NCBI RefSeq assembly: GCF_041248615.1
Contig: NZ_CP158426.1
Length of the DNA stretch: 64,000 bases
Strand: one strand, 5' to 3'
From: Escherichia coli
GTDB lineage: Bacteria > Pseudomonadota > Gammaproteobacteria > Enterobacterales > Enterobacteriaceae
Shown here: positions 52,520 through 64,000 of the stretch, piece after piece
How positions within the stretch are numbered: position 1 is the stretch's first letter
Layout: every line of letters starts with the position of its first letter
Made by a program: the position numbers and the translations under genes
The notes under the pieces: generated by a model
Told to the model about the DNA's origin: nothing
Database searches by the model: none
The model's input: only the letters and a program-made list of their open reading frames with translations

Positions 52520-52600
52520 AACCAAACGACTCGGGGTGCCCTTCTGCGTGAAGGCTGAGAAATACCCGTATCACCTGATCTGGATAATGCCAGCGTAGGT
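52520..52600 (+). ncRNA. TPP riboswitch aptamer (thi-box) of the thiM leader
   Basis: AACCAAACGACTCGGGGTGCCCTTCTGCGTGAAGGCTGAGAAATACCCGTATCACCTGATCTGGATAATGCCAGCGTAGG matches the recalled E. coli thiM TPP aptamer; similarity ends at about 52600. Confidence 0.85.
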
Positions 52601-52654
52601 TGCCAACATTCTGATTAGTATTCATGTGGTTACATTTCTTTTTGTCCGTGTGTA

Positions 52655-53986
52655 ATGCACCTAATGTACAAAAAGAGCGTAAACATGAGGTACAAAACTC
52701 TTCCATACACGTTTCAAAGAAACGGTAATTACTATCTACAGATTCGGCTTTCGAATGGTCGGATGTATAAAAAATCACTTCTCACTGACAGCTATCGTGA
52801 AGTCTCTGCTTTGATGATTGGTGTTGCTCCGTACATTCCTTTTGTTAAATCATTAGCCATCACAATCCCGATGTTTGATGCCTTTGTTTCAAACCTGATT
52901 ATGTCAAAACTTAGGGCTGTAAAAGTTCCGCTGCTATCACATCAGTCGGTAATTACCCCTGCTACATTCGAGGAACCAGCGACACAAGCCGAACCGCAAA
53001 ACATGCTAACTCTTTCTGATGCGTGGGCTATGTATAAAGCGGAAAAGGGTAAAACATGGACAAAGTCGATCTCAAGGGCGAATGAGCGTTACATGGAAGT
53101 CTTGATGGTTGTCTTGGGAGAGACAACTGACGTAGTTGCGATTTCTAAGCAGGACATCAAGCAGGTGATGGAAGTTGTTGAGAATTTGCCTAAGCGTGTT
53201 GTCCAACCGTATCGCTCAATGAACATCCAGCAACTGATTGAATGTGATGATGTATCACCGAATGAGTTAGTAGGAGTGGAAGCCATTCATAAGCATCTCA
53301 AAATCTACAAATCGCTTTTCAAGACTTTTCTAACAGAAAACAAAGATATTTTGATTAAATCCCCAACTGATGGGGTAGTAGCAGCACCATCTAAAGCAAG
53401 GTTTGGAGCATACAGTTCGGCGGAGATGAAGAAGTTTGTAGAGTGGGCACTTAAGCAGCCAGATGGCTGGCAGAAGTGGATAACATTGTTGTTGGCATAC
53501 ACAGGAGCCAGAAGGGGAGAAATTGCCAAACTGGAAAAATCACAAATAAAATATGATGAGGATAGCCATCGGTATTATTTCCTGATTGCAGAAGGAGGGC
53601 AGGGGAAAACCGAAAATGCTACCCGACAAGTAGTGATACACCCTAAGTTGATCGAATGGGGTTTCATGGAATACGTTGATCGCCAGTGGAAAGAACGGAT
53701 TTTTTCAGAAGTGGCTGGTACAAACATGACGAAGATCGGTAAAGAATTTGCTGATGTGCGTGACCAGCTTGACATTCCGTACTTAGACGATTTTGGACAG
53801 CGGAGGCTTTTGCATAGCATTCGTCATTCTGTTTGCTCTACTGCGATGGCTGGATGGGTAAAGAACATCTTGCATCTGCAACAAACAGTAGGCCATGAGA
53901 AAAGTGGAGGGATCACTAAACGCTACTTACATACGTTCCCACTATCATCAATTTGTTATGTTATTGATGGGATTAGTTGGGTCTGA
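52655..53986 (+). CDS. tyrosine-type site-specific integrase (island integrase)
   Basis: C-terminal catalytic box LHSIRHS...GH...Y (R-H-R-Y tyrosine recombinase motif); true start may be the Met at 52685. Confidence 0.75.
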   Translation: MHLMYKKSVNMRYKTLPYTFQRNGNYYLQIRLSNGRMYKKSLLTDSYREVSALMIGVAPYIPFVKSLAITIPMFDAFVSNLIMSKLRAVKVPLLSHQSVITPATFEEPATQAEPQNMLTLSDAWAMYKAEKGKTWTKSISRANERYMEVLMVVLGETTDVVAISKQDIKQVMEVVENLPKRVVQPYRSMNIQQLIECDDVSPNELVGVEAIHKHLKIYKSLFKTFLTENKDILIKSPTDGVVAAPSKARFGAYSSAEMKKFVEWALKQPDGWQKWITLLLAYTGARRGEIAKLEKSQIKYDEDSHRYYFLIAEGGQGKTENATRQVVIHPKLIEWGFMEYVDRQWKERIFSEVAGTNMTKIGKEFADVRDQLDIPYLDDFGQRRLLHSIRHSVCSTAMAGWVKNILHLQQTVGHEKSGGITKRYLHTFPLSSICYVIDGISWV

Positions 53987-54203
53987 AACTGCTAAGAATG
54001 ATAGGAAAAGCTACTTAATGATCCTTAGTTTTGGATGAAATTGAAGATTACAAAGATCTTGAGCGAATAAGAGCGTTTTTTAATCAAAAAAGCCATAAAA
54101 ACTTTTCTTGACTGTATATTAACACAGTGCTTCTACTATGTAGAAGAAATCGACATGAAAAATTTGATATGGTAAATTTTATCCATGATAACAAAAAGGT
54201 ATT

Positions 54204-55106
54204 GTGGATATGTTACTACCAATACGAGTTCATAAACGATTTCTAACTTTATTTAAGACTTTGCAAATTGACGATTGCCCACCGCAATCAACTTTAAATA
54301 TTCATGTACTTAATATCGAAAGCAATGAATTTATATACTGTAAATTAGTTGAAGAATTACGTGACATAATAATTACTTATGTACATTCGAATAGAAGGCT
54401 TGAGGAGTTTAAGGAAAGTTATCCTTCGTATAGCCCTAAACCTTTTTTCGAAGCAATACAAAAATTTCGCAATTATACGTCAAACGAAGGTGAGTTAGGT
54501 GAACTGCTTTTATACGCTTTTCTTGAAACAGGACTAAATGCTCCGAAATTACTTTCCAAAATGCAATTGAAAACAGATTCTAATGATTACATTAAGGGTT
54601 CTGATGGTGTACATCTGTTAGAATTAGATGATGGTTATCAATTAATATTTGGAGAATCAAAGCTCTATGCCGATCTTTTAGAAGGTGCTCGAGAAGCGTT
54701 TGATTCTATTTTAGATTTTAAAAGTAATGGAATGGCATTTGAAAGAGGGCTGATAGATACACACGTTATAAATGAAATGGTTTCAGAAGAAGGTTATGAG
54801 AAAATAAAATCAATTCTTCTTCCTTCTTCTGGCGATGATGGGCCAGATCTTGATTTATCCTTTGGTATATTTCTTGGTTTTGAATTGAAAATAGATAGCT
54901 CACAGTTATCATTGAAAAACAAAGAGTTTAGAGATTGGGTTAATGAGTCCGTGAAACAACATGCTACTCGCGTGGTCAGTACGATACGAAGGAAAATTAT
55001 TAATCATAAATTATATGGTCACGAATTCCACATATATATAGTTCCTTTTACCGATATTGATGTTACACGAAAAAAATTAATTCATGAAATGCTAACAATT
55101 AAGTGA
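54204..55106 (+). CDS. PD-(D/E)xK-like putative nuclease, HamA-like (Hachiman-type effector candidate)
   Basis: 300 aa; motif ELDDGYQLIFGESK (D...ExK); stop overlaps the start of the downstream helicase gene by 4 nt; low GC, island context. Confidence 0.5.
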   Translation: MDMLLPIRVHKRFLTLFKTLQIDDCPPQSTLNIHVLNIESNEFIYCKLVEELRDIIITYVHSNRRLEEFKESYPSYSPKPFFEAIQKFRNYTSNEGELGELLLYAFLETGLNAPKLLSKMQLKTDSNDYIKGSDGVHLLELDDGYQLIFGESKLYADLLEGAREAFDSILDFKSNGMAFERGLIDTHVINEMVSEEGYEKIKSILLPSSGDDGPDLDLSFGIFLGFELKIDSSQLSLKNKEFRDWVNESVKQHATRVVSTIRRKIINHKLYGHEFHIYIVPFTDIDVTRKKLIHEMLTIK

Positions 55107-57691
55107 ACACTATGAATGAATTAAATTCAAGTAAAAACATTCATTTGGCAGCTCGTCTTGCAGATGATGCTTTTGAAAGTGCTTATTTTAAAGAAATCAA
55201 TAAGTTTATAAGTGGTTTATACAATTACAGTTTATTTAACTGCGATTCAGATGTTAGTCTCTCCGAGAGTGATAACAATAAAATAGCACACGCTTTGCGT
55301 TTTGCAGATATATTTTCACATTCTTCAAAAGAAAATCATAGATCATGTGCATTTGAAATTATAAGTAGAATAGCCTTATTAAAAAAACATGATCCTTATT
55401 TTAAATTTATAGGTACTGCTGTTATTAATCGGCTTGGGGTTTATGCAGCAGAAAAACTCATATCAAAAGGGGTAAAATTACCCTTAGATAGAGAAGTTGA
55501 TTCTATTATTAAAAAATCAGTTCAGAAAACAGATGAAGATGGAGTATATTTCACTGATAAACAACATGAGTTATACAAACTTTTAAAAAGTAGCAAAACA
55601 ATTAGTTTTGCTGGTCCCACTTCGATGGGAAAGTCATTTGTTATTAATGCATACATTAAGGAAATAACTCTTAAAAAAGAGCTTAAAAATATAGCTTTAA
55701 TTGTTCCTACACGGGCTTTAATAAGCCAAAATGCACTTAAGTTAAAAATTGATATTGCATTGTATAAGAATGAAAGCCCTTATAAAGTTGTTACGACATC
55801 CTACATTATTAATGGTGATGAAAGTAAAAATAAAGGCTATATTTTTATTCTCACCCCAGAAAGGCTGGTTAGTCTCATAAGCACTATTCCTGGACTAATG
55901 ATTGATTATGTTTTTGTAGATGAAGCTCAAAAGTTAACAACAAAAAATGATTCGAGGAGTCTTGTTACTTATTCAGCTATAGAGCAAACAATTAGTAAAA
56001 ATCCTGAGGCAAGATTATTCTTCTCTTCACCTAATTTATCTAATCCTGAAATATTTAATATTTTGTTTGATAGAAAAGACGCTTCGGTATATAGAAATAC
56101 AGAAGGTGCAACTACTCAGAATATGTATTTTATTGATCTTTTAAATAGCAGCTTTAGCTATGTTAATACCGAGAAAAGGACGCTTGAAAAAATAGATGAG
56201 ATCTCTAATACTTACACGAATACAAATGATGTTATCTATAAATTAAATAATGGTAAAAGTAAAATAATTTATTGTGGGGGGATAGAAAGCACGCTTGAGA
56301 GAACACGTAGCTTTATCAATTATCTCAAAATTAATAAGAAAAAAAGAAAGCATTTAAATTTAGAAATATCTTCTGAGATAAGAAACTTTGTTCATGATAA
56401 CTATGAACTTGCAGAAGCCATCAACTATGGTGTTGCTTTCCACTTTGGAAACTTGCCTCAATCGATTCGAGATTTAATTGAGCATCATTTCAAAATAGGA
56501 AATATTGACTATCTATTCTGTACATCAACCCTACTTGAGGGAGTCAATTTACCTGCAAGATCCGTATTTATTCTTACGCATAAAAAAGGCCCCAGTCCAT
56601 TAGAGTCGGTTGATTTTTGGAATCTGGCTGGGAGAGCTGGGCGATTATCTATGGAATTGTCAGGGGATATTTTTTGTATTAGGGATGATAATAAGCTTTG
56701 GAATAAAAAAGCTGTTGATAATATCCTTCTGTCTGACAAAAATAACATTTCATTAAAGCCAAGCTTCTATATTGAAGACGAAAAAAGATTGAACGATTTA
56801 CACCATATAATTACGACTGGTAAAACAGGGAATATTAAAAATGCTGAGTTCCTTAGAACTTTAGGAGATATGATAAGAATAGACACTCTGAGGGATTCTA
56901 AAGAACTTCCTCTTATTAGTTATTTCCAAAGCAGTGGAAAATCAGAAATTTTGTTAAGTGCAGAAAAAAGCACTGAAAATATTACCATGCCAATGAATAT
57001 CCTTTTGGCAAATAGTCATATTGCGATTGATTCGCAGTATCATGCTTTTAAAAAAATAAAAAGCCTTACAGTTAAGGAACTGAAATTATCATGGCAGCCT
57101 ACATACGAAGAAATTAAAGAAAAATTGAATTTGATATTCGATATTTACCAAGTTGAAAAGTTTGCAACAGGTAGAGAACGTCTTTATTTAAATTCAATTC
57201 CATATTATGCAGTATTACTGTTTCAATGGATTCGTGGAAATAGTCTACAGGAAATTATCTCGGGGGCAATTGCTTATAGAAAGAACAAAAGTATATATAT
57301 TAAAAATACACCTGTTCTTTTTGACAGCGAAAACCCAGCTCATTTAACTGCATTAGTTAATGAAACTATAAAAGACATTGAGTTGCGTGTAGGTTACCAG
57401 TTACAAAATTATTTTTCACATTACTGTCAGCTTCTGAATTATGTGTTACAAGGAAATCCAGGGGCAAACTGGTCTCAGTTCATTGAGTTTGGCTCTAATG
57501 AGCCAATAGTATGGCACCTACAAATGATGGGCTTTTCAAGGGATAGTGCAGTTTTTCTCAAGAAGAATTTTTCAAAACATCTTAAACTTGATAATGAAAT
57601 GAATAAACTCATCATAATGGATAAGGAACTGATCAAGCGTTCTTTCAAAAAAGATGGACTACATTACTTAGAAATCCAATCGTTATTATAA
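55103..57691 (+). CDS. SF2 helicase, HamB-like (Hachiman-type helicase candidate)
   Basis: 862 aa; Walker A AGPTSMGKS, Walker B FVDEAQK, SSP motif, motif V TSTLLEGVNLP and motif VI AGRAGR. Confidence 0.55.
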   Translation: MNTMNELNSSKNIHLAARLADDAFESAYFKEINKFISGLYNYSLFNCDSDVSLSESDNNKIAHALRFADIFSHSSKENHRSCAFEIISRIALLKKHDPYFKFIGTAVINRLGVYAAEKLISKGVKLPLDREVDSIIKKSVQKTDEDGVYFTDKQHELYKLLKSSKTISFAGPTSMGKSFVINAYIKEITLKKELKNIALIVPTRALISQNALKLKIDIALYKNESPYKVVTTSYIINGDESKNKGYIFILTPERLVSLISTIPGLMIDYVFVDEAQKLTTKNDSRSLVTYSAIEQTISKNPEARLFFSSPNLSNPEIFNILFDRKDASVYRNTEGATTQNMYFIDLLNSSFSYVNTEKRTLEKIDEISNTYTNTNDVIYKLNNGKSKIIYCGGIESTLERTRSFINYLKINKKKRKHLNLEISSEIRNFVHDNYELAEAINYGVAFHFGNLPQSIRDLIEHHFKIGNIDYLFCTSTLLEGVNLPARSVFILTHKKGPSPLESVDFWNLAGRAGRLSMELSGDIFCIRDDNKLWNKKAVDNILLSDKNNISLKPSFYIEDEKRLNDLHHIITTGKTGNIKNAEFLRTLGDMIRIDTLRDSKELPLISYFQSSGKSEILLSAEKSTENITMPMNILLANSHIAIDSQYHAFKKIKSLTVKELKLSWQPTYEEIKEKLNLIFDIYQVEKFATGRERLYLNSIPYYAVLLFQWIRGNSLQEIISGAIAYRKNKSIYIKNTPVLFDSENPAHLTALVNETIKDIELRVGYQLQNYFSHYCQLLNYVLQGNPGANWSQFIEFGSNEPIVWHLQMMGFSRDSAVFLKKNFSKHLKLDNEMNKLIIMDKELIKRSFKKDGLHYLEIQSLL

Positions 57692-57697
57692 AACTGC

Positions 57698-57727
57698 CGA
57701 ATCAGAGTCTTTTATTGATTCTGATTC
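57698..57727 (+). terminator. hairpin downstream of the helicase gene (no clear U-tract)
   Basis: CGAATCAGA-(loop)-TCTGATTCG. Confidence 0.35.
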
Positions 57728-57999
57728 GCACTTATATAGTTAAATCAAAAGGAGCATTAAAATTTTTCAGTAGCGATTTAGTATGCTAAATCGCTGCATA
57801 ACGAATCTGCTTCTAAATCTTGATTAAGTGTTTCGAACTGCCTTGATTGTTTATTGCTACACTTTATAATTAATCGCAACACACAAAACAATACAATGTA
57901 GGCAGTTGCACAGAATTAATTACAGGCACATTATGGATATCGAGAGGATTCGAACAGTTTTAAACTGCAAGCCCTTTGACTTTATCCCCTCCTACTATA

Positions 58000-58575
58000 T
58001 CAGCGTTTGATGCCGCTAATACTGGCAAGCATTTCTTTCTTCACACGAAAAACTGTAGCCCTGCCGCAATCACATAACTTTGCTATCTCGTCTGGTGTAT
58101 TCTTCCCGGCCTGTAACATATCGATAATCTTGTTATGTAGCTCTTTGTTCTTTTGCTTGCCCTTGTACTTCTTAGCCTCTTTAGCAAGAGCAATCCCCTC
58201 ATTGCGACGAGATGCGATCATACCCCGCTCAAATTCTGCAGCGGCTCCCATCATGGTTAGGATAAGGCGTGATTGTGGGGAATTATCAAAACTCATAGAG
58301 TTTGCAAGGAATTGAACAGTGATTCCACGAGCCACGAGGTTATCAATCATTTCCAGCAAATCGCGGGTATTACGTGCAAGGCGATCAATCGAGTGAGTAA
58401 CGAGCGTGTCACCTTCGCGGAGGTGTGAAAGCAGGTTCAACAATTCAGGTCTTTCGCTGGTGGACTTACCTGATTCTTTCTCTGCCACAATTTTGTCACA
58501 AACAGGTTCCAGCACTGCCAACTGACGCTCAAGATTTTGATCCTTTGTTGAGACTCTCGCGTAACCAAAAATCAT
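58000..58575 (-). CDS. serine recombinase (resolvase/invertase family)
   Basis: N-terminal catalytic domain MIFGYARVSTKDQ with catalytic Ser, C-terminal HTH; 191 aa. Confidence 0.85.
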   Translation of the reverse strand: MIFGYARVSTKDQNLERQLAVLEPVCDKIVAEKESGKSTSERPELLNLLSHLREGDTLVTHSIDRLARNTRDLLEMIDNLVARGITVQFLANSMSFDNSPQSRLILTMMGAAAEFERGMIASRRNEGIALAKEAKKYKGKQKNKELHNKIIDMLQAGKNTPDEIAKLCDCGRATVFRVKKEMLASISGIKR

Positions 58576-58589
58576 TTTCCTGCCCTCAC

Positions 58590-58665
58590 TTACGTGAAAA
58601 GTATCATTTGAATTTACTTAATGATACAGTATCATTTAAATGCATTCAACATCTAAATGATACTA
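58590..58665. promoter_or_regulatory. res-like recombinase binding site (imperfect inverted repeats) upstream of the serine recombinase gene
   Basis: repeated TATCATTT(A/G)AAT half-sites in inverted orientation (GTATCATTTGAAT...ATGATACA; TATCATTTAAATG...ATCTAAATGATAC). Confidence 0.5.
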
Positions 58666-59125
58666 AACGAGACGAGAAAAGCGAGTATCGTTAGGGAGTA
58701 CCCAAAAGAGATTTTTGATCGTGCGTTTTTTAGTCAATGTAGGGTTAGTGAAAAGTTCAGTACCGAGATCTGAGTTCACGGCATTTTGTCGACGGGGTTG
58801 AACCTGATTAGGCGAACGAGATTTTAAATCAGGCGGAATAAAACAAGTTGTACTTTTATCTGAGTAAAAGATCCCTTTAACTTTTTAGTCAGAAATCGTG
58901 ATACTAGGGGTTTGGTTATTTTGTGTCCTTAAGGCCAGTACTTTTAGCGAGGACGAAAAAACGGCCTACATGAGAACGCTTACAGTAACTTAAGTATATT
59001 ATCCAAAAAGTCACTTAACTTAAATCAATTTGGATGCAAAATCGCCACACTTTGCAAGTGAACACATACCGGGCAACAAGCAAATAAAAAAGGCCACTTT
59101 CGCGACCTTGTACCAGTACAAACAC

Positions 59126-59485
59126 TCATTCAGAACGATCAAGTACCATATATGCTGGCTGACACATGCTGCCCCGCTCCTGTAGCCAGTAGTAATCAAG
59201 ATCGGCAACACGCACGTCCAATCCAGAATCTACACGGTTGATCTGTAACCGTAGCCCTACAGTATCCTTGTACGATAAACCAGATTTAACATTGTATTTG
59301 TACTTAACACCGTTTTCCTGTTCAAACTGTTTAAGGAAAGGCGTCATTTGTTTCTGAATTTCTTTCAAACAAATAACCTCATTATCAATAGCAAAGGGGG
59401 GTTCTGTTTTTCCATCAGGTACAGCAGCCTGTAAATGAAAGGAAGTACTCAACAATAACAGCATTGCAACAGAAGTCTTTTTCAT
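59126..59485 (-). CDS. small secreted protein of unknown function
   Basis: 119 aa; cleavable signal peptide MKKTSVAMLLLLSTSFHLQA; 43 nt downstream of the membrane protein gene. Confidence 0.6.
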   Translation of the reverse strand: MKKTSVAMLLLLSTSFHLQAAVPDGKTEPPFAIDNEVICLKEIQKQMTPFLKQFEQENGVKYKYNVKSGLSYKDTVGLRLQINRVDSGLDVRVADLDYYWLQERGSMCQPAYMVLDRSE

Positions 59486-59528
59486 TTTAATTCCTTATTA
59501 AAGAACAGTACATTATATTTCAATGGAC

Positions 59529-60569
59529 TTAATAACAATATTTTATATTTCCTTCGGGTTTTCTCATGCATTTAATTCCTTCAGGAATATAATCAGTTAC
59601 GGGAGCAGGTCTGGCATCAGGTCTTGAAAGACGATTGGATATAGAAGACAACAGACTGAAAACACACTCATTAAATGATTTTTGATATTTATTTTTTTCA
59701 TAAAAGTACTGCATGGTGATTTTATCTCTTTCGTATTGCAATTCTTTGCCAAGCTGAATCCTATCCATATCAATTCCATTTCTCATAGCATTAAATCTTT
59801 CGTTCAATAAATTAAATTGAGATTTATTCCATTCATTTAAAGGAAATAAAGAATTGTTAAGCCTTTGCCTACAATTAGATTGCTCGATAGCTGACATGTA
59901 TTCTTTCATACTAACGCCAATATCTAAGTATGTGAGTTGTCCAGCAGTTCTATCAACTGAGTTATTAGGGTAAGATTTAATTTCAGTAAGTATTGACTCT
60001 GTTAATACTGCATTTTCTTCTAAATCTTTGCTAATAGTTATTTGAGCTTGTTCTCTTTTATCCTTATCAAATATTGAAATGTATTTCTTTACTATATCCT
60101 GATTAGCTTTCTCGGCTGCTACTAACGCATCTTGAACCTTCTTTTCCGCCGCTTTAACTCGTTGTTCTTCTACAAATTTCGCGTAGTCATCAGTATTTGT
60201 AATGTGATTTTCACGAGCGATAGAAAACTCTTTACTATCTTTAAAACCAAGTTTTTGTGCTCTGGCTCCATCGCTTGAAGATCGGGCAGAACTTGCCACG
60301 AAAGCGAGCACAATGATCAGTACAGGAACCGTATAATTATTAACGAGTTTATAGGGTAAGAACTTCGCTTTAAGCGTACCATAACCCAAAACAGCCCAGC
60401 CTATCGCGGCAGTACTTGCCAGTAGCTGGCACAATCCAGCGACGGAAAGCATGATTACCGACCAGAAGCCTGTACCGACTGCGAAAAGATCACCAAATTT
60501 CTCCATTGACGCAAGGAATAAAAACACTCCCCAAATGCCATAAAATCCTATTTTCAAATATTTACTCAC
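59529..60569 (-). CDS. 3-TM membrane protein with large charged coiled-coil-like C-terminal domain, unknown function
   Basis: 346 aa; three N-terminal hydrophobic helices followed by a K/E/Q-rich soluble domain. Confidence 0.6.
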   Translation of the reverse strand: MSKYLKIGFYGIWGVFLFLASMEKFGDLFAVGTGFWSVIMLSVAGLCQLLASTAAIGWAVLGYGTLKAKFLPYKLVNNYTVPVLIIVLAFVASSARSSSDGARAQKLGFKDSKEFSIARENHITNTDDYAKFVEEQRVKAAEKKVQDALVAAEKANQDIVKKYISIFDKDKREQAQITISKDLEENAVLTESILTEIKSYPNNSVDRTAGQLTYLDIGVSMKEYMSAIEQSNCRQRLNNSLFPLNEWNKSQFNLLNERFNAMRNGIDMDRIQLGKELQYERDKITMQYFYEKNKYQKSFNECVFSLLSSISNRLSRPDARPAPVTDYIPEGIKCMRKPEGNIKYCY

Positions 60570-60779
60570 CGCAATTATCCTTTAATAATTTTCCAAATCG
60601 ATGGTTCGTTCTATTTGTATTATCGACAATAATTCGTTTGCCTTTAGGTAGATCCCTTAAAAAGGAATCCCCCCAAAATTTATAGATTAGCAGTTGTACC
60701 ACTCTCACTGTTTTGTCACTCCCATTATCTTCTCTCAGGTCAAAAGTACGGACTTAAAGCCGTCCGTGTTCAGGTGCTC

Positions 60780-60900
60780 AAGAGTAGCACGCATATCAAT
60801 AAATGATCGATAAAAACGATCAATTAATGGCTTATTGATCGCTATAACCTATCAATGACTATTAATTCAATACAAATCAATAGGTAAAATCGATCAAGAG
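60780..60900. repeat. AT-rich cluster of ATCAAT/ATTGAT repeats with GATC sites (iteron/origin-like or protein-binding array)
   Basis: five ATCAAT/ATTGAT copies and four GATC sites within about 120 bp, in an ORF-free region. Confidence 0.45.
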
Positions 60901-61552
60901 GATTCGTCATCCATGAAAGGGGTTATGTATCTGATTTCAATACAGGGAGTATTAGCGATACCATCACGCAAACGCTCTTAAAGCGTAGCTACGGCGTTTT
61001 GTAGGGTTTTTGGTCATTCATGTGTGTCAGTAATGAACATCGCATTCAGGGGCTTCCTGTGCGTTTTGTCCGAAACACCATCATGAAGGGGGACAGATCG
61101 GATCGGGGTCGCTTCGCTCTGGTCAGTACTGGATAGTTCTTTTCCAGTAACTGAAACCGCAGATACCCCACTAAGTACACAAAGGAATTATTTGTAGAAT
61201 AAGTAATGAAATAACAGTCAGTTATGTACTTACTGACAGAACTAAAAACGCGATTAGGTTCGCTCTGTCAGTGACCGAAGGGAACGCAACAGTAGAATCT
61301 AATCCAGCGAACAGTACACGCAAGCGGGTGCTGTTTAATTGTTTTATCTATGTAAACAATGGGATAGCTATCAAGTACTCACTGCGTGAGCACTCTCACT
61401 AACTACCCGAAACAGTTCGCTTGCTTCGCCGCTCCTACTTTCAGGTAGTTAATTCGCTTTCGCTCGTTGTGATGTCCGAAATTTATTACCTATAGTATTA
61501 TAAGGTATTATTTTCCGGACATTTATGTATTTTTATGATGGTGTTCTGGACA

Positions 61553-63028
61553 TCATTTTTTGCTTTTTTGTACTTCCTTTTCGTATTTGTTCCACATAGC
61601 CTTTTGCTCTTCGGGACTGAGTGCTGTATTACCACTGGCAAGAAACACCTTGAACGCTTCTAACTCAAGCCCTGGGTTGCGGCTTTTCCAGCGGCGAAAA
61701 CGCTTAGCGTGATTATCATCAAGAGTGAAACGCTTTTGCTTATTCTTTGAACCTTGCGGCCTGCCTCTCGACCTCTGCTCATCATCAATACCGATATCTA
61801 TATACTCAATATTATCTGTAAGAGATCTGGCTTGCCATTCATCAAAAACATAAACAGTCTGTGTTTCAGTACTGTCAAAATCCCTTGAAATTCCTCGTAG
61901 TACGAACTGGTGTAAACTTTCGTACTCCCTCGCAACATGTATCGCCTCGCCGTCAATCTCAAAGAACAATTCGCACTGTTTAGCCTCTGTTTCAGAGGGA
62001 CGCATACAAGCGAGCCAGACGCACGTGAGCAAGTGTTGGTACTGGTTAAACCCTCTGGCATCCGGGCTTATCTCTGTGCCGTTTTTGAGGCTCTGAGAAT
62101 CGCTTTTGTTCTTCGTCCAGTAGAAATCCTGTCCCTCAAGTTTTTTATCAATAAATGAGTATATTTTTTGTACTTTATCAGGGTTATTAGTCTTCCATGT
62201 CTTCGATAGTTTTTGATTTTTTGAGAAGTAATAAACCTTTAATCTGTCTTTGAGAGCTGTTTTTCGTGTCAGTAATCCTCCAAGTTCAGTACTTTCAAAG
62301 AGTTCTTTATTGCCTTTATAGATCAATGAATTTTCGAAATTAGCTCCGAGAAAGGTGATTGATACGTCTTTGTACTTACTGAGATCTTTCCATGCGGTAA
62401 TATTAAGCTGTTCCTTTTTCGCATCGGTAAAGTACTCATTATTCATGATGAACATATCATTTTCGTTAATTGCTGGTAGCTGGTTCAAAATATTCTTCAG
62501 TACTTCCCCTTGTATTTCTGGTTTTCTTTCTGCCGCAATATACATATTTTTATCATCTAATGTCAGTACATTGTGTATTAATGAATTAAGAATTGTATTT
62601 TTTATATTAGTATCACCCTCATTAATATTCTGAAAAGAGTGAAAATTAGTAACGTCGTCAATATAAATATTACAGTCAGATAACAATTCAGGAGGAATTT
62701 TGAAAAACGTTTTATCTGTTATGAGTAATGTTTTATTACTTCCAGATGAAAGAAAGTTAATAACTGAATTAATAACACTTTCATCTTTTGGTACTGTATC
62801 TGTAATTATATACTCGCAATTATTGATTTGCTTTGCTGTCTGCTTAATAAGTTCTTGAGTGTTCTGTACTAAAATATATTTTTCAGTACTGTTATTGATT
62901 ATATTGCATATAGCAGTAGTTTTACCTGAACCACAAGGGGCGGAGACATACTTAAATTTATTATAAATAGGTGTGGGATTAATCATTTGTACACGCTCCA
63001 TATTGATTAATGTAGAAAGGTCAGCCAT
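61553..63028 (-). CDS. P-loop NTPase with C-terminal AT-hook (RGRP-GSKNK) DNA-binding tail, unknown family
   Basis: 491 aa; Walker A APCGSGKTT near the N-terminus, candidate Walker B NIYIDDV; C-terminal RSRGRPQGSKNKQKR matches the AT-hook consensus. Confidence 0.6.
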   Translation of the reverse strand: MADLSTLINMERVQMINPTPIYNKFKYVSAPCGSGKTTAICNIINNSTEKYILVQNTQELIKQTAKQINNCEYIITDTVPKDESVINSVINFLSSGSNKTLLITDKTFFKIPPELLSDCNIYIDDVTNFHSFQNINEGDTNIKNTILNSLIHNVLTLDDKNMYIAAERKPEIQGEVLKNILNQLPAINENDMFIMNNEYFTDAKKEQLNITAWKDLSKYKDVSITFLGANFENSLIYKGNKELFESTELGGLLTRKTALKDRLKVYYFSKNQKLSKTWKTNNPDKVQKIYSFIDKKLEGQDFYWTKNKSDSQSLKNGTEISPDARGFNQYQHLLTCVWLACMRPSETEAKQCELFFEIDGEAIHVAREYESLHQFVLRGISRDFDSTETQTVYVFDEWQARSLTDNIEYIDIGIDDEQRSRGRPQGSKNKQKRFTLDDNHAKRFRRWKSRNPGLELEAFKVFLASGNTALSPEEQKAMWNKYEKEVQKSKK

Positions 63029-63359
63029 TCCAGTGTCTGGCCTTTCGTTGTTTTAGTTATTAGTCTTTTTGAGTTGCGACAACTGCAAGAGAATGTTTAT
63101 AAACAAGTGAAATAAGCAGTTTTACCGCCTCAAAAGCTACAGTCAGTTTCGTAATTATTTTCGAAAGCATCGTAAATTTCACTTCGCTATCTTCTATGCA
63201 AAAATTAGCAGCCTGAGGTATTTAATGATTGAGATGTGGCCTGTTGATAAGAGGGTTTGTATTGCTTGTTCTGCTCTTTGTTAATTTGTGACTTATTCCT
63301 TTCACAATGATCGGCTATGTTTGATAACTCTGTTAGGAAATCACCTATGGCTACCATAT

Positions 63360-64000
63360 TGGATTTGCCCCTATATTTCCAGACACCTGTTATCACTTAA
63401 CCCATTACTGGCCTGCTGCCGCAGATATTCCCGTGGCGAGCGATAACCCAGTGCACTATGCGGATGCCATTCGTTATAATGCTCGAACGCCTCTGCAAGG
63501 TTCTTTGCTGCCGTTAACCCGTCTGGTTTAGGCATGATACTGATGTAGTCACGCTTTATCGTTTTCACGAAGCTCTCTGCTATGCCGTTACTCTCCGGAC
63601 TCCGCACCGCCGTGTTCTTCGGTTCAAGCCCCAATATCCGGGCAAACTGCCGTGTTTCATTAGCCCGGTAGCATGAACCATTATCCGTCAGCCACTCTAC
63701 TGGAGACGCCGGAAGCTCGTTGCCGAAGCGGCGTTCCACCGCTCCCAGCATGACGTCCTGTACTGTTTCACTGTCGAAGCCGCCCGTAGTGACTGCCCAG
63801 TGCAGTGCCTCACGGTCACAGCAGTCCAGCGCGAACGTGACTCGCAGTTTTTCTCCGTTATCACAGCGGAACTCGAACCCGTCAGAGCACCATCGTTGAT
63901 TGCTTTCTTTCACGGCCACTTTGCCAGTATGTGCCCGTTTCGATGGCGGTACAGCGGTTTTTCGCTCAAGCAACAGCGCATTCTGGCGCATGATCCGGTA
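63360..64000 (-). mobile_element. IS2 (IS3 family), partial; right terminal inverted repeat at about 63360, element runs past the window end
   Basis: terminus TGGATTTGCCCCTATATTTCCAGACA matches the recalled IS2 end; encoded protein matches the recalled IS2 InsD (OrfB) C-terminus. Confidence 0.85.
63371..64000 (-). CDS. insD: IS2 transposase OrfB (InsD), 3' portion; 5' end beyond the window
   Basis: translation ...[39 protein letters not shown]...[19 protein letters not shown] matches recalled InsD (DDE integrase core). Confidence 0.85.

Follow-up and report, generated by a model that had tools for sequence, protein, structure and literature searches.

A small serine recombinase and its predicted three-subsite res site in the backbone of integrative defence islands of Escherichia coli

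Introduction

The closest described counterpart of the locus analysed here is the resolution system of Salmonella genomic island 1 (SGI1), an integrative island whose restored res site has the layout 28/22/30/2/25 and was established as a Tn3-like three-subsite site by electrophoretic mobility shift assays and by resolution and recombination assays (PMC12217951). Its recombinase Res (S027) is efficient in removing multimers of the island and forms cointegrates at a frequency of 1e-3 to 1e-4 (PMC12217951). Resolvase-like small recombinases of integrative pipolins have likewise been interpreted as resolution systems. On a broader scale, the RADS preprint of 2025, with EF_B0058 of Enterococcus faecalis pTEF2 as bait, reported that genes of small serine recombinases are markers of anti-phage defence loci in different phyla; that study goes no further than the association, identifies no recombination site and makes no choice between mobilisation, inversion and diversification as the function (PMC12632615). 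Here, we analysed a small serine recombinase of 191 amino acids (aa) encoded in a stretch of 64,000 nucleotides of chromosomal E. coli DNA (contig NZ_CP158426.1, assembly GCF_041248615.1; the whole stretch is called the window below), together with the repeats upstream of its gene and the island that carries both.

The recombinase and its res are a backbone part of a family of ~9-12 kb integrative islands, which occur with different integrases and defence cargo at at least five E. coli loci, and natural junctions between otherwise unrelated sequences cluster at the centre of the outermost res subsite, site I. The best-supported reading, and the most likely one, is a resolution system of the SGI1 kind. 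A Tn3-like res with a resolvase in an integrative island is a kind of system already known; this member is undescribed, and what is new is the point of exchange mapped next to defence cargo.

Results

A conserved small serine recombinase convergent with a Hachiman helicase gene

58000-58575, minus strand: small serine recombinase (resolvase) gene, 191 aa, identified from its open reading frame (ORF), Pfam matches, full-length alignment and the ratio of non-synonymous to synonymous polymorphism (pN/pS).

The predicted protein matches the Pfam family Resolvase (PF00239, E=2.5e-36) and, at 22.1 bits and thus slightly below the family cut-off of 23.8, the resolvase helix-turn-helix (HTH) family PF02796 (HTH_7). 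It can be aligned over nearly its full length with the solved structures of the gamma-delta and Tn3 resolvases, Sin and Gin (E ~1e-22 to 1e-24 for all), and the alignment reaches the HTH of gamma-delta and Tn3, up to residues 181-185. Both the YARVS nucleophile motif and the DRLAR arginines are intact and align with S10 and R68/R71 of gamma-delta. With its catalytic domain, C-terminal HTH and a length in the range of ~180-210 aa, the protein is a small serine recombinase; matches to PF07508 and PF13408, which are features of large serine integrases, are absent, and those enzymes exceed 400 aa. A preliminary description of this DNA, made from the sequence, had proposed a resolvase-type serine recombinase convergent to a helicase gene, and both parts were borne out by the PF00239 match, by the end-to-end alignment with gamma-delta and Tn3, and by the identity of the helicase gene as hamB of a Hachiman defence system (55103-57691, plus strand).

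To follow the gene beyond the window, we assembled 30 res-bearing loci (nine from E. coli, three from other genera and 18 from metagenome contigs). The gene is intact in 29 of them, the catalytic serine and arginines are kept in every intact copy, and a pN/pS of 0.06-0.14 at a pS of ~0.4 indicates strong purifying selection. The clade comprises sequences of Enterobacterales and Aeromonas at 85-93% identity, and all E. coli copies are chromosomal. Homologous loci number roughly 1,400.

One human gut metagenome contig (L118) is unique among the 30 loci in that the usual recombinase N-terminus MIFGYARVS is absent, probably lost through a frameshift. It is also the sole locus with a mutated outer motif of site I (GAATC instead of GTATC) and appears to be a decaying copy. 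A tiny circular record of 3.7 kb deposited as an E. coli 'plasmid' (CP057083.1, L013) consists of a gene for a small serine recombinase (49.5% identity), one for a Gp2 replication protein of the inovirus type and one of the DUF2158 family, and nothing else. This record may represent a mini-element, either excised or autonomous, that carries its own resolvase.

Three subsites upstream of the recombinase gene

58601-58627: predicted res subsite III, 27 bp, nearest the gene, GTATCATT-N11-AATGATAC; exact inverted octamers, the same in related loci.
58629-58663: predicted res subsite II, 35 bp, GTATCATT-N19-AATGATAC; inverted repeat with exact octamers, the same in related loci.
58685-58712/14: predicted res subsite I, the putative crossover site, 28-30 bp, degenerate, GTATCGTTAGGGAG-TA-CCCAAAAGAGAT(TT); recognised from conservation, position-weight match and junctions.
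58621-58649, minus strand: predicted sigma-70 promoter of the recombinase gene, with -35 TTGAAT (58649-58644) in site II and -10 TATCAT (58626-58621) in site III; from a consensus scan.

The octamer GTATCATT occurs exactly four times in the window, for which 2.0 occurrences are expected by chance, and all four copies lie inside 63 bp with alternating orientation (58601-08, plus; 58620-27, minus; 58629-36, plus; 58656-63, minus). These exact copies form a 27-bp and a 35-bp site directly upstream of the gene, in line with the inverted-repeat half-site pairs of the preliminary description, which missed the third, degenerate subsite (58685-58714). In gene orientation, the layout reads site I, 28-30 bp; spacer, 21 bp; site II, 35 bp; spacer, 1 bp; site III, 27 bp; and 25 bp to the ATG, with a total res length of ~112-114 bp. 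Three predicted inverted-repeat subsites beside the gene, with site I farthest from it and with these lengths and spacings, correspond to a res of the Tn3/gamma-delta type, for which ~28 bp (I), ~34 bp (II) and ~25 bp (III), a long spacer between I and II and a short one between II and III are characteristic.

In E. coli loci found by BLAST (85-100% identity), the four octamers and their spacing are unchanged, and they are nearly identical in loci of Aeromonas, Yersinia and Klebsiella, which were retrieved via the protein (89%, 77% and 66% amino-acid identity, respectively). The half-site octamers are invariant and the internal spacers variable. Alignment of the upstream regions of these homologues showed that site I is kept across all four genera, and its 21 distinct variants retain GTATC, GGG, the central TA and GAGA, site I not having been used for the retrieval of loci. 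A 30-bp position-weight matrix built from the 21 variants detected site I once in the window and once per related locus, and found nothing above a much lower threshold in shuffled sequence. The 18 metagenome loci were picked by exact octamers of sites II and III; the retrieval pattern excluded site I, so that site I and the flanks of these loci provide independent evidence. The predicted promoter lies where it would be expected for autoregulation, as in Tn3 and SGI1.

In Klebsiella pneumoniae islands of the 66%-identical clade (L010-L012), site I reads GTATCATTTGAGCC-TA-CCCCACAGAGAC and, by comparison with E. coli, has the opposite orientation with respect to sites II and III, an arrangement that is tolerable only with a palindromic crossover dinucleotide (TA). 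A scan of genome contigs with a 16-base palindromic pattern, which is too short, returned 92 matches that are nearly all due to chance, the real ones being confined to Pantoea, Rahnella and Raoultella loci.

According to the preliminary description, the recombinase might control the orientation of a neighbouring segment. Such a Hin/Gin-type invertase would flip, for example, the adjacent uncharacterized genes for expression control. PHROGs and some database names do label the family 'DNA invertase', Hin, Gin, Cin and Pin belong to the same superfamily with the same size and similar E-values, Gin is about as similar to the recombinase as the resolvases are, and a defence-linked invertase, PinQ, is cited in PMC12632615. 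The site architecture is of the resolvase type: Hin/Gin systems use two inverted crossover sites and a Fis-bound enhancer, whereas here three adjacent subsites form a single res beside the gene. A second inverted copy of the half-site, which would delimit an invertible segment, was searched for throughout the 64 kb with the motif at up to two mismatches, the exact octamer and the site I matrix, and none was convincing; as noted above, site I is single in the window and in each related locus. Moreover, the backbone lies on the same strand relative to the recombinase in 28 of 28 related loci, and 21 E. coli genomes have colinear full-length matches to positions 57950-58950. With neither paired inverted sites nor both orientations among genomes, an invertible switch is the least probable of the explanations that we weighed.

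Natural junctions cluster at the centre of site I

58713-58940: conserved non-coding segment R1 (~230 bp), from site I to a second cargo junction; 72-100% identical in at least 17 loci.

A sensitive BLAST search of positions 57950-58950 against 5,426 complete E. coli genomes returned three kinds of match. Besides the 21 genomes that are colinear over the full length, ten match only up to window positions 58701-58712, and 13 match only from 58693 or 58704 onward, the latter without this recombinase type. The point at which similarity begins or ends thus falls within site I.

We then clustered the flanks of the 30 res-bearing loci, using 140 bp to the left of the site I centre (at least 95% identity) and 186 bp to the right. 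The flanks of the two sides combine independently of each other: left family L1 occurs with the right flanks R1, R3, R5 and R10, L3 with R1 and R5, L5 with R1 and R4, and L6 with R4 and R9, these right flanks being unrelated to one another, and R1, R4 and R5 are each found with several left families. Two pairs of islands illustrate the pattern. To the left, loci L005 and L017, both at yggR, reach 98.7% identity over 900 bp, but no similarity between them is detectable over 3 kb to the right. Conversely, identity between the window and locus L002 is 88% on the left and rises on the right to 98.6% over 3 kb, the first 120 bp of which are free of mismatches, with the switch at the inner edge of site I. 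Altogether, nine unrelated right-flank families join within the same 12 bp, for which our own arithmetic gives a chance of ~(12/240)^9 if junctions fell at random over the 240-bp R1 and each family is taken as an independent event.

The tightest brackets come from single mismatches, of which one at -1 follows the left family (L115/L127) and one at +2 follows the right family (L018/L116), so that only the invariant TA (58699-58700) remains between them. Comparative evidence of this kind would place the exchange within the central AGTA (58697-58700), most simply at the invariant TA. The right half-site is variable and goes with the DNA to its right, and the junction pattern is, as far as sequences can tell, what conservative exchange would be expected to leave in the middle of a recombinase dimer site. 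Insertion beside a conserved module would keep the right half-site unchanged, unlike the variation observed, and homologous recombination cannot act where the flanks are unrelated. Where they occur between near-identical islands, such junctions at site I show recent activity.

Insertion of a res-hunter transposon (Tn5053/Tn402) was considered as a source of the cargo and rejected, as the annotated cargo contains no transposition genes, no short identical target duplication is present, and the junctions lie at the site I centre, not in the spacer.

The junctions also bear on the possibility that the protein is mainly a DNA-binding repressor of itself and its neighbours, the junctions then being the work of another enzyme or of illegitimate recombination. 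A repressor function is known from Tn3 resolvase as well, and the promoter predicted here falls inside sites II and III. Against such a role stand the conservation of the catalytic serine and arginines in all intact copies and the position of the junctions at the centre of the dimer site, where a right half-site that moves together with the incoming DNA is the hallmark of an exchange that is conservative and site-specific. We consider a mainly repressive role very unlikely.

A further alternative, that of a cargo-capture platform, arises from three independent inserts that lie exactly between site I and R1, namely 1.2 kb in L018/L126, 0.5 kb in L115/L127 and 2.2 kb with DuOB-DUF488-DUF4326 in L016. 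At its first junction, each insert has a fresh canonical right half-site, and its second junction retains a TA with a right half-site in degenerate form, as expected from conservative integration at the central TA. The recombinase might accordingly integrate circular cargo with a site I-like sequence into site I, as integrons do at attI, and the site would then serve mainly for the uptake of defence genes and less for resolution. However, the left halves of the second junctions bear no relation to the half-site of the recombinase, and the cargo holds no arrays of sites: two forward and 13 reverse matches to the right half-site in 131 kb are at chance level, and the 13 on the reverse strand are homologous copies of three sites. 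In addition, resolvases that use accessory sites have a strong preference for resolution within one molecule, the same structures would result if two whole elements fused at res and a deletion followed, and large replacements (L015, L017) end in homologous backbone and not in a second site. Capture of this kind is therefore unlikely in our view, if less so than a role as repressor or switch.

The module belongs to the backbone of integrative islands

52522-52617, plus strand: thiamine pyrophosphate (TPP) riboswitch copy at the left island end, an attachment-site repeat (Rfam RF00059, 58 bits).
52655-53986, plus strand: tyrosine integrase of the island, from its ORF and the RefSeq annotation of an identical island.
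54204-57691, plus strand: Hachiman defence system, cargo on the gene-distal side of the recombinase (hamA 54204-55106, hamB 55103-57691).
59126-63028, minus strand: conserved island backbone, consisting of the 119-aa and 346-aa genes, non-coding DNA and the 491-aa gene; conserved across loci.
59126-59485, minus strand: gene of a 119-aa predicted secreted protein with a signal-peptide-like N-terminus.
59529-60569, minus strand: gene of a 346-aa predicted membrane protein with N-terminal hydrophobic segments.
60570-61552: ORF-free, non-coding DNA of ~1 kb between the 346-aa and helicase-like genes, in which an 18-nt repeat occurs three times (60806, 60838, 60880), together with several inverted repeats.
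61553-63028, minus strand: gene of a 491-aa P-loop/helicase-like protein (phrog_2467, E=1e-38; weak match to CyRepA1 plasmid-replication proteins).
63360-64000, minus strand: copy of the insertion sequence IS2 near the right island end, running off the window; homology to an IS-free sister island stops at 63359.

The host island measures ~11.3 kb in IS-free strains and is inserted in the TPP riboswitch of thiM, which is duplicated at both ends; the second riboswitch copy lies ahead of thiM in strain KE55 (NZ_CP141061), and an 80-bp repeat is common to the two ends. The genes follow in the order tyrosine integrase, Hachiman, recombinase with res, R1, 119-aa, 346-aa, ~1 kb of non-coding DNA, 491-aa and a small ORF. 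In having a resolvase and a predicted res within an integrase-bearing island flanked by attachment-site repeats, it resembles islands of the SGI1 kind. The Hachiman assignment is supported by Pfam (HamA) and by PADLOC (HamA, E=2e-120; HamB, E=8e-296).

In sister islands, the Hachiman slot holds other cargo. Apart from Hachiman, the islands carry TIR plus NACHT, Lamassu, SMODS plus SLATT, an AAA-ATPase pair and DuOB-DUF488-DUF4326, as well as the candidate defence families PDC-S60 and PDC-S20 (a KAP NTPase). Their integrases differ as well: a tyrosine integrase is found at thiM, large serine recombinases take this role at ppdD, yggR/yggS and ybhA, and the islands at ffs have yet another integrase. 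The ~4-kb backbone is paired with at least four different integrases at five chromosomal sites (window 52522-63359, L002-L005 and L015-L019), which means that these islands swap their integrase module no less freely than their cargo.

The 119-aa and 346-aa backbone proteins have no family match in Pfam, NCBIfam, PHROGs or PADLOC, and the 491-aa protein has no relative in the Protein Data Bank. Several sister islands have a shorter variant of the 346-aa gene. Tandem Repeats Finder reported nothing for 60570-61552, and this repeat-bearing region may be a replication origin. Together, the helicase-like protein and the non-coding region may point to a role of the backbone in replication. At the right end, IS2 is inserted at or in the small ORF 63205-63396; identical islands of other strains (e.g. 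KE55) are without IS2, whose ORF at 63360-64000 we take to be InsD-like.

The preliminary description had also considered a remnant of a Tn3-family transposon or of a plasmid cointegrate-resolution system fused into the island. The cointegrate- or multimer-resolution type and the location in a mobile island stood up to analysis, whereas decay into an inactive remnant did not. The res architecture is indeed that of the Tn3 family, and small serine recombinases are abundant on plasmids. Yet the RefSeq annotation shows no Tn3 transposase within 20 kb of an identical island or in the sister islands, terminal inverted repeats (~38 bp) not having been searched for separately, so that a Tn3-family transposon is not what the annotation describes. 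The recombinase has no close relative on plasmids, where identity does not exceed 57%, or on phages, where the maximum is 45%, and the functional context of its nearest plasmid homologues is uninformative. Purifying selection on an intact gene, half-sites that are invariant across genera, the presence of the module in islands at at least five chromosomal sites with different integrases, and recombinant site I junctions between near-identical islands, which point to recent activity, all speak against decay. A remnant is thus highly improbable, and less credible again than a repressor.

A second junction hot spot beyond R1

58928-58947: second junction hot spot, 'site B', CTTAAGG-CCAGTA-CTTTTAG, from an alignment of 17 R1 copies.

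At the far end of R1, these copies share the consensus CT(A/T)AAGG-nnnGTA and diverge past an invariant TA (58939-58940) into at least six unrelated classes, several of which start with an imperfect inverted copy (CCTTAGC/CTTTTAGC). Site B looks like a second recombination core, judging from this alignment, and the cargo in its slot ends at a terminator at 59090-59109.

R1 is also present in islands with a different recombinase. In two E. coli islands at ffs/ybaA (L016 6167-7076; L019 8261-9000), a small serine recombinase of 206 aa and 31% identity occupies the same position beside R1. It has repeated motifs of its own, of the GTCTGTTTTA type, and its junction to R1 lies at the equivalent TA. 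In L016, the DuOB-DUF488-DUF4326 cargo is found between the site of the 206-aa recombinase and an orphan degenerate site I.

Discussion

Our analyses indicate that the recombinase and its res are probably a working resolution module of the Tn3/gamma-delta type in the backbone of small integrative defence islands. According to the mechanism that we propose, recombinase dimers would bind the three adjacent subsites III, II and I upstream of their own gene. Binding at sites II and III, which overlap the predicted promoter, would repress the gene, and the same two sites would double as accessory sites. The substrate would be two res sites in direct repeat on one molecule, as in an excised island that has dimerised, in a tandem array or in a cointegrate formed with a related element; synapsis of the accessory sites would be followed by strand exchange at the centre of site I (AGTA, 58697-58700), and the structure would be resolved. 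At low frequency, the same reaction could join two different elements at site I, and a second crossover, either homologous in the conserved backbone or catalysed by the integrase at the attachment sites, would then yield a hybrid island. In this way, the DNA beyond site I, where the anti-phage cargo sits, would have been replaced repeatedly. The sequences show the gene, the three-subsite layout with its conservation and the gathering of natural junctions at the site I centre; we infer binding, autoregulation, the topology of the reaction and the resolution of multimers or cointegrates as the selected function; likewise, the helicase-like protein and the repeat-bearing non-coding region may indicate that the excised island replicates.

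Several observations weigh against this proposal. The 491-aa protein is only weakly similar to replication proteins, no circular contig was found among the metagenome contigs when terminal overlaps were looked for, and the viral contigs contain no copy of res (0 matches to a 32-base res pattern), which therefore lend no support to a phage-satellite origin. Octamer conservation at sites II and III in the 18 metagenome loci is circular because these octamers were required for retrieval. The right half of site I is degenerate, and the two 12-bp arms have GT (58698-58699) at their geometric centre, a shift by one base against the invariant TA (58699-58700), which makes TA a provisional choice of crossover dinucleotide. 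The predicted promoter is a weak consensus match, in a region where the number of such matches is at chance level. Moreover, homologous recombination inside the gene also makes mosaics: the gene of L003 is a hybrid with its breakpoint in the coding region, and change-point analysis reveals homologous-recombination breakpoints inside the gene, so that site I is not the sole mosaic boundary. For loci with the R1 flank, this analysis was confounded by the different constraint on coding and non-coding DNA, the sole clean case being that of the window and L002 at site I. Finally, site B is a second junction hot spot 240 bp away, which the 191-aa recombinase may not serve.

A more general possibility, which we put forward tentatively and regard as doubtful, is that modules of a small serine recombinase and a res are a general device for the exchange of anti-phage cargo between mobile islands, in which the centre of site I would be a universal point of docking and exchange and each cargo block would bring its own half-site. 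In the strongest form of this idea, the enzyme would capture cargo circles in the manner of an integron. If true, it would explain the phylum-wide linkage of small serine recombinases to defence systems.

For a widespread clade of enterobacterial and Aeromonas recombinases, the present analysis provides a predicted three-subsite res, a position of the exchange at nucleotide level and population evidence of repeated cargo swaps, which concern defence cargo on one side of site I between otherwise near-identical islands. The association of serine recombinases with defence genes, which PMC12632615 left unexplained, would thereby acquire a mechanism, and the question becomes experimentally testable. 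It also suggests a rule for delimiting the cargo of such islands, namely that cargo starts at the centre of site I. Should the role be multimer resolution only, the system would be an ordinary, though previously undescribed, relative of those of SGI1 and Tn3.

Among known systems, Sin shares the N-terminal motif YARVS-x-DQNLERQL with the recombinase described here, and the site I core GGGTAC may resemble that of Sin site I. The sites themselves are not of the Sin/beta type, in which there are only two recombinase sites, site II consists of direct repeats and HU or IHF takes part; here, there are two accessory sites, both inverted repeats of GTATCATT, as in Tn3.

With the loci of the RADS preprint, the islands have recurring cargo types in common (KAP NTPase, DUF5677/DUF6988 and AAA ATPase), and the recombinase is 36% identical to the bait EF_B0058 over the catalytic domain, within the 30% threshold of that study (PMC12632615). 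The difference is that a res site is defined here and natural crossovers are mapped to it. Upstream of EF_B0058 itself (L130 20203-20290), we noted a perfect 22-bp palindrome, CCAACAGGGTA|TACCCTGTTGG, with the core GGGTA|TACCC, followed by direct repeats (T/G)CAACAGA. By its sequence this is a Sin-like res, which is absent from the account given in PMC12632615, and its presence suggests that the same explanation may hold more widely.

The likeness to Tn3 and gamma-delta comprises the full-length protein alignment (E ~1e-23), the order I-II-III-gene, comparable lengths and spacers, a promoter, predicted in our case, within the accessory sites, and an exchange at the site I centre, which here is deduced from comparison of loci. 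Differences are found in the protein, which is distant and equally close to Sin and Gin, in the lack of an annotated transposase, in site III (27 bp here, 25 bp there) and in the spacer between II and III (1 bp here, 5 bp there). In terms of the spacer relations of Tn3, the differences here are +8 and +1 to +3. The site I core here is GGGAGTACCC, unlike that of gamma-delta and Tn3, which is AT-rich with a central AT.

The closest match in layout and context is SGI1, in which a small serine resolvase is likewise preceded directly upstream by a three-subsite Tn3-like res, in an integrative island with its own integrase and at the border between conserved backbone and variable cargo. The SGI1 layout of 28/22/30/2/25 compares with 28-30/21/35/1/27 here. 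The two belong to different island families and differ in half-site sequence and in cargo, which is resistance in SGI1 and defence here. They also differ in how the cargo is joined to the module: in SGI1, it entered by a res-hunting transposon in the spacer between sites I and II with a 5-bp duplication, whereas in the islands described here the junctions lie at the centre of site I and are free of transposon parts.

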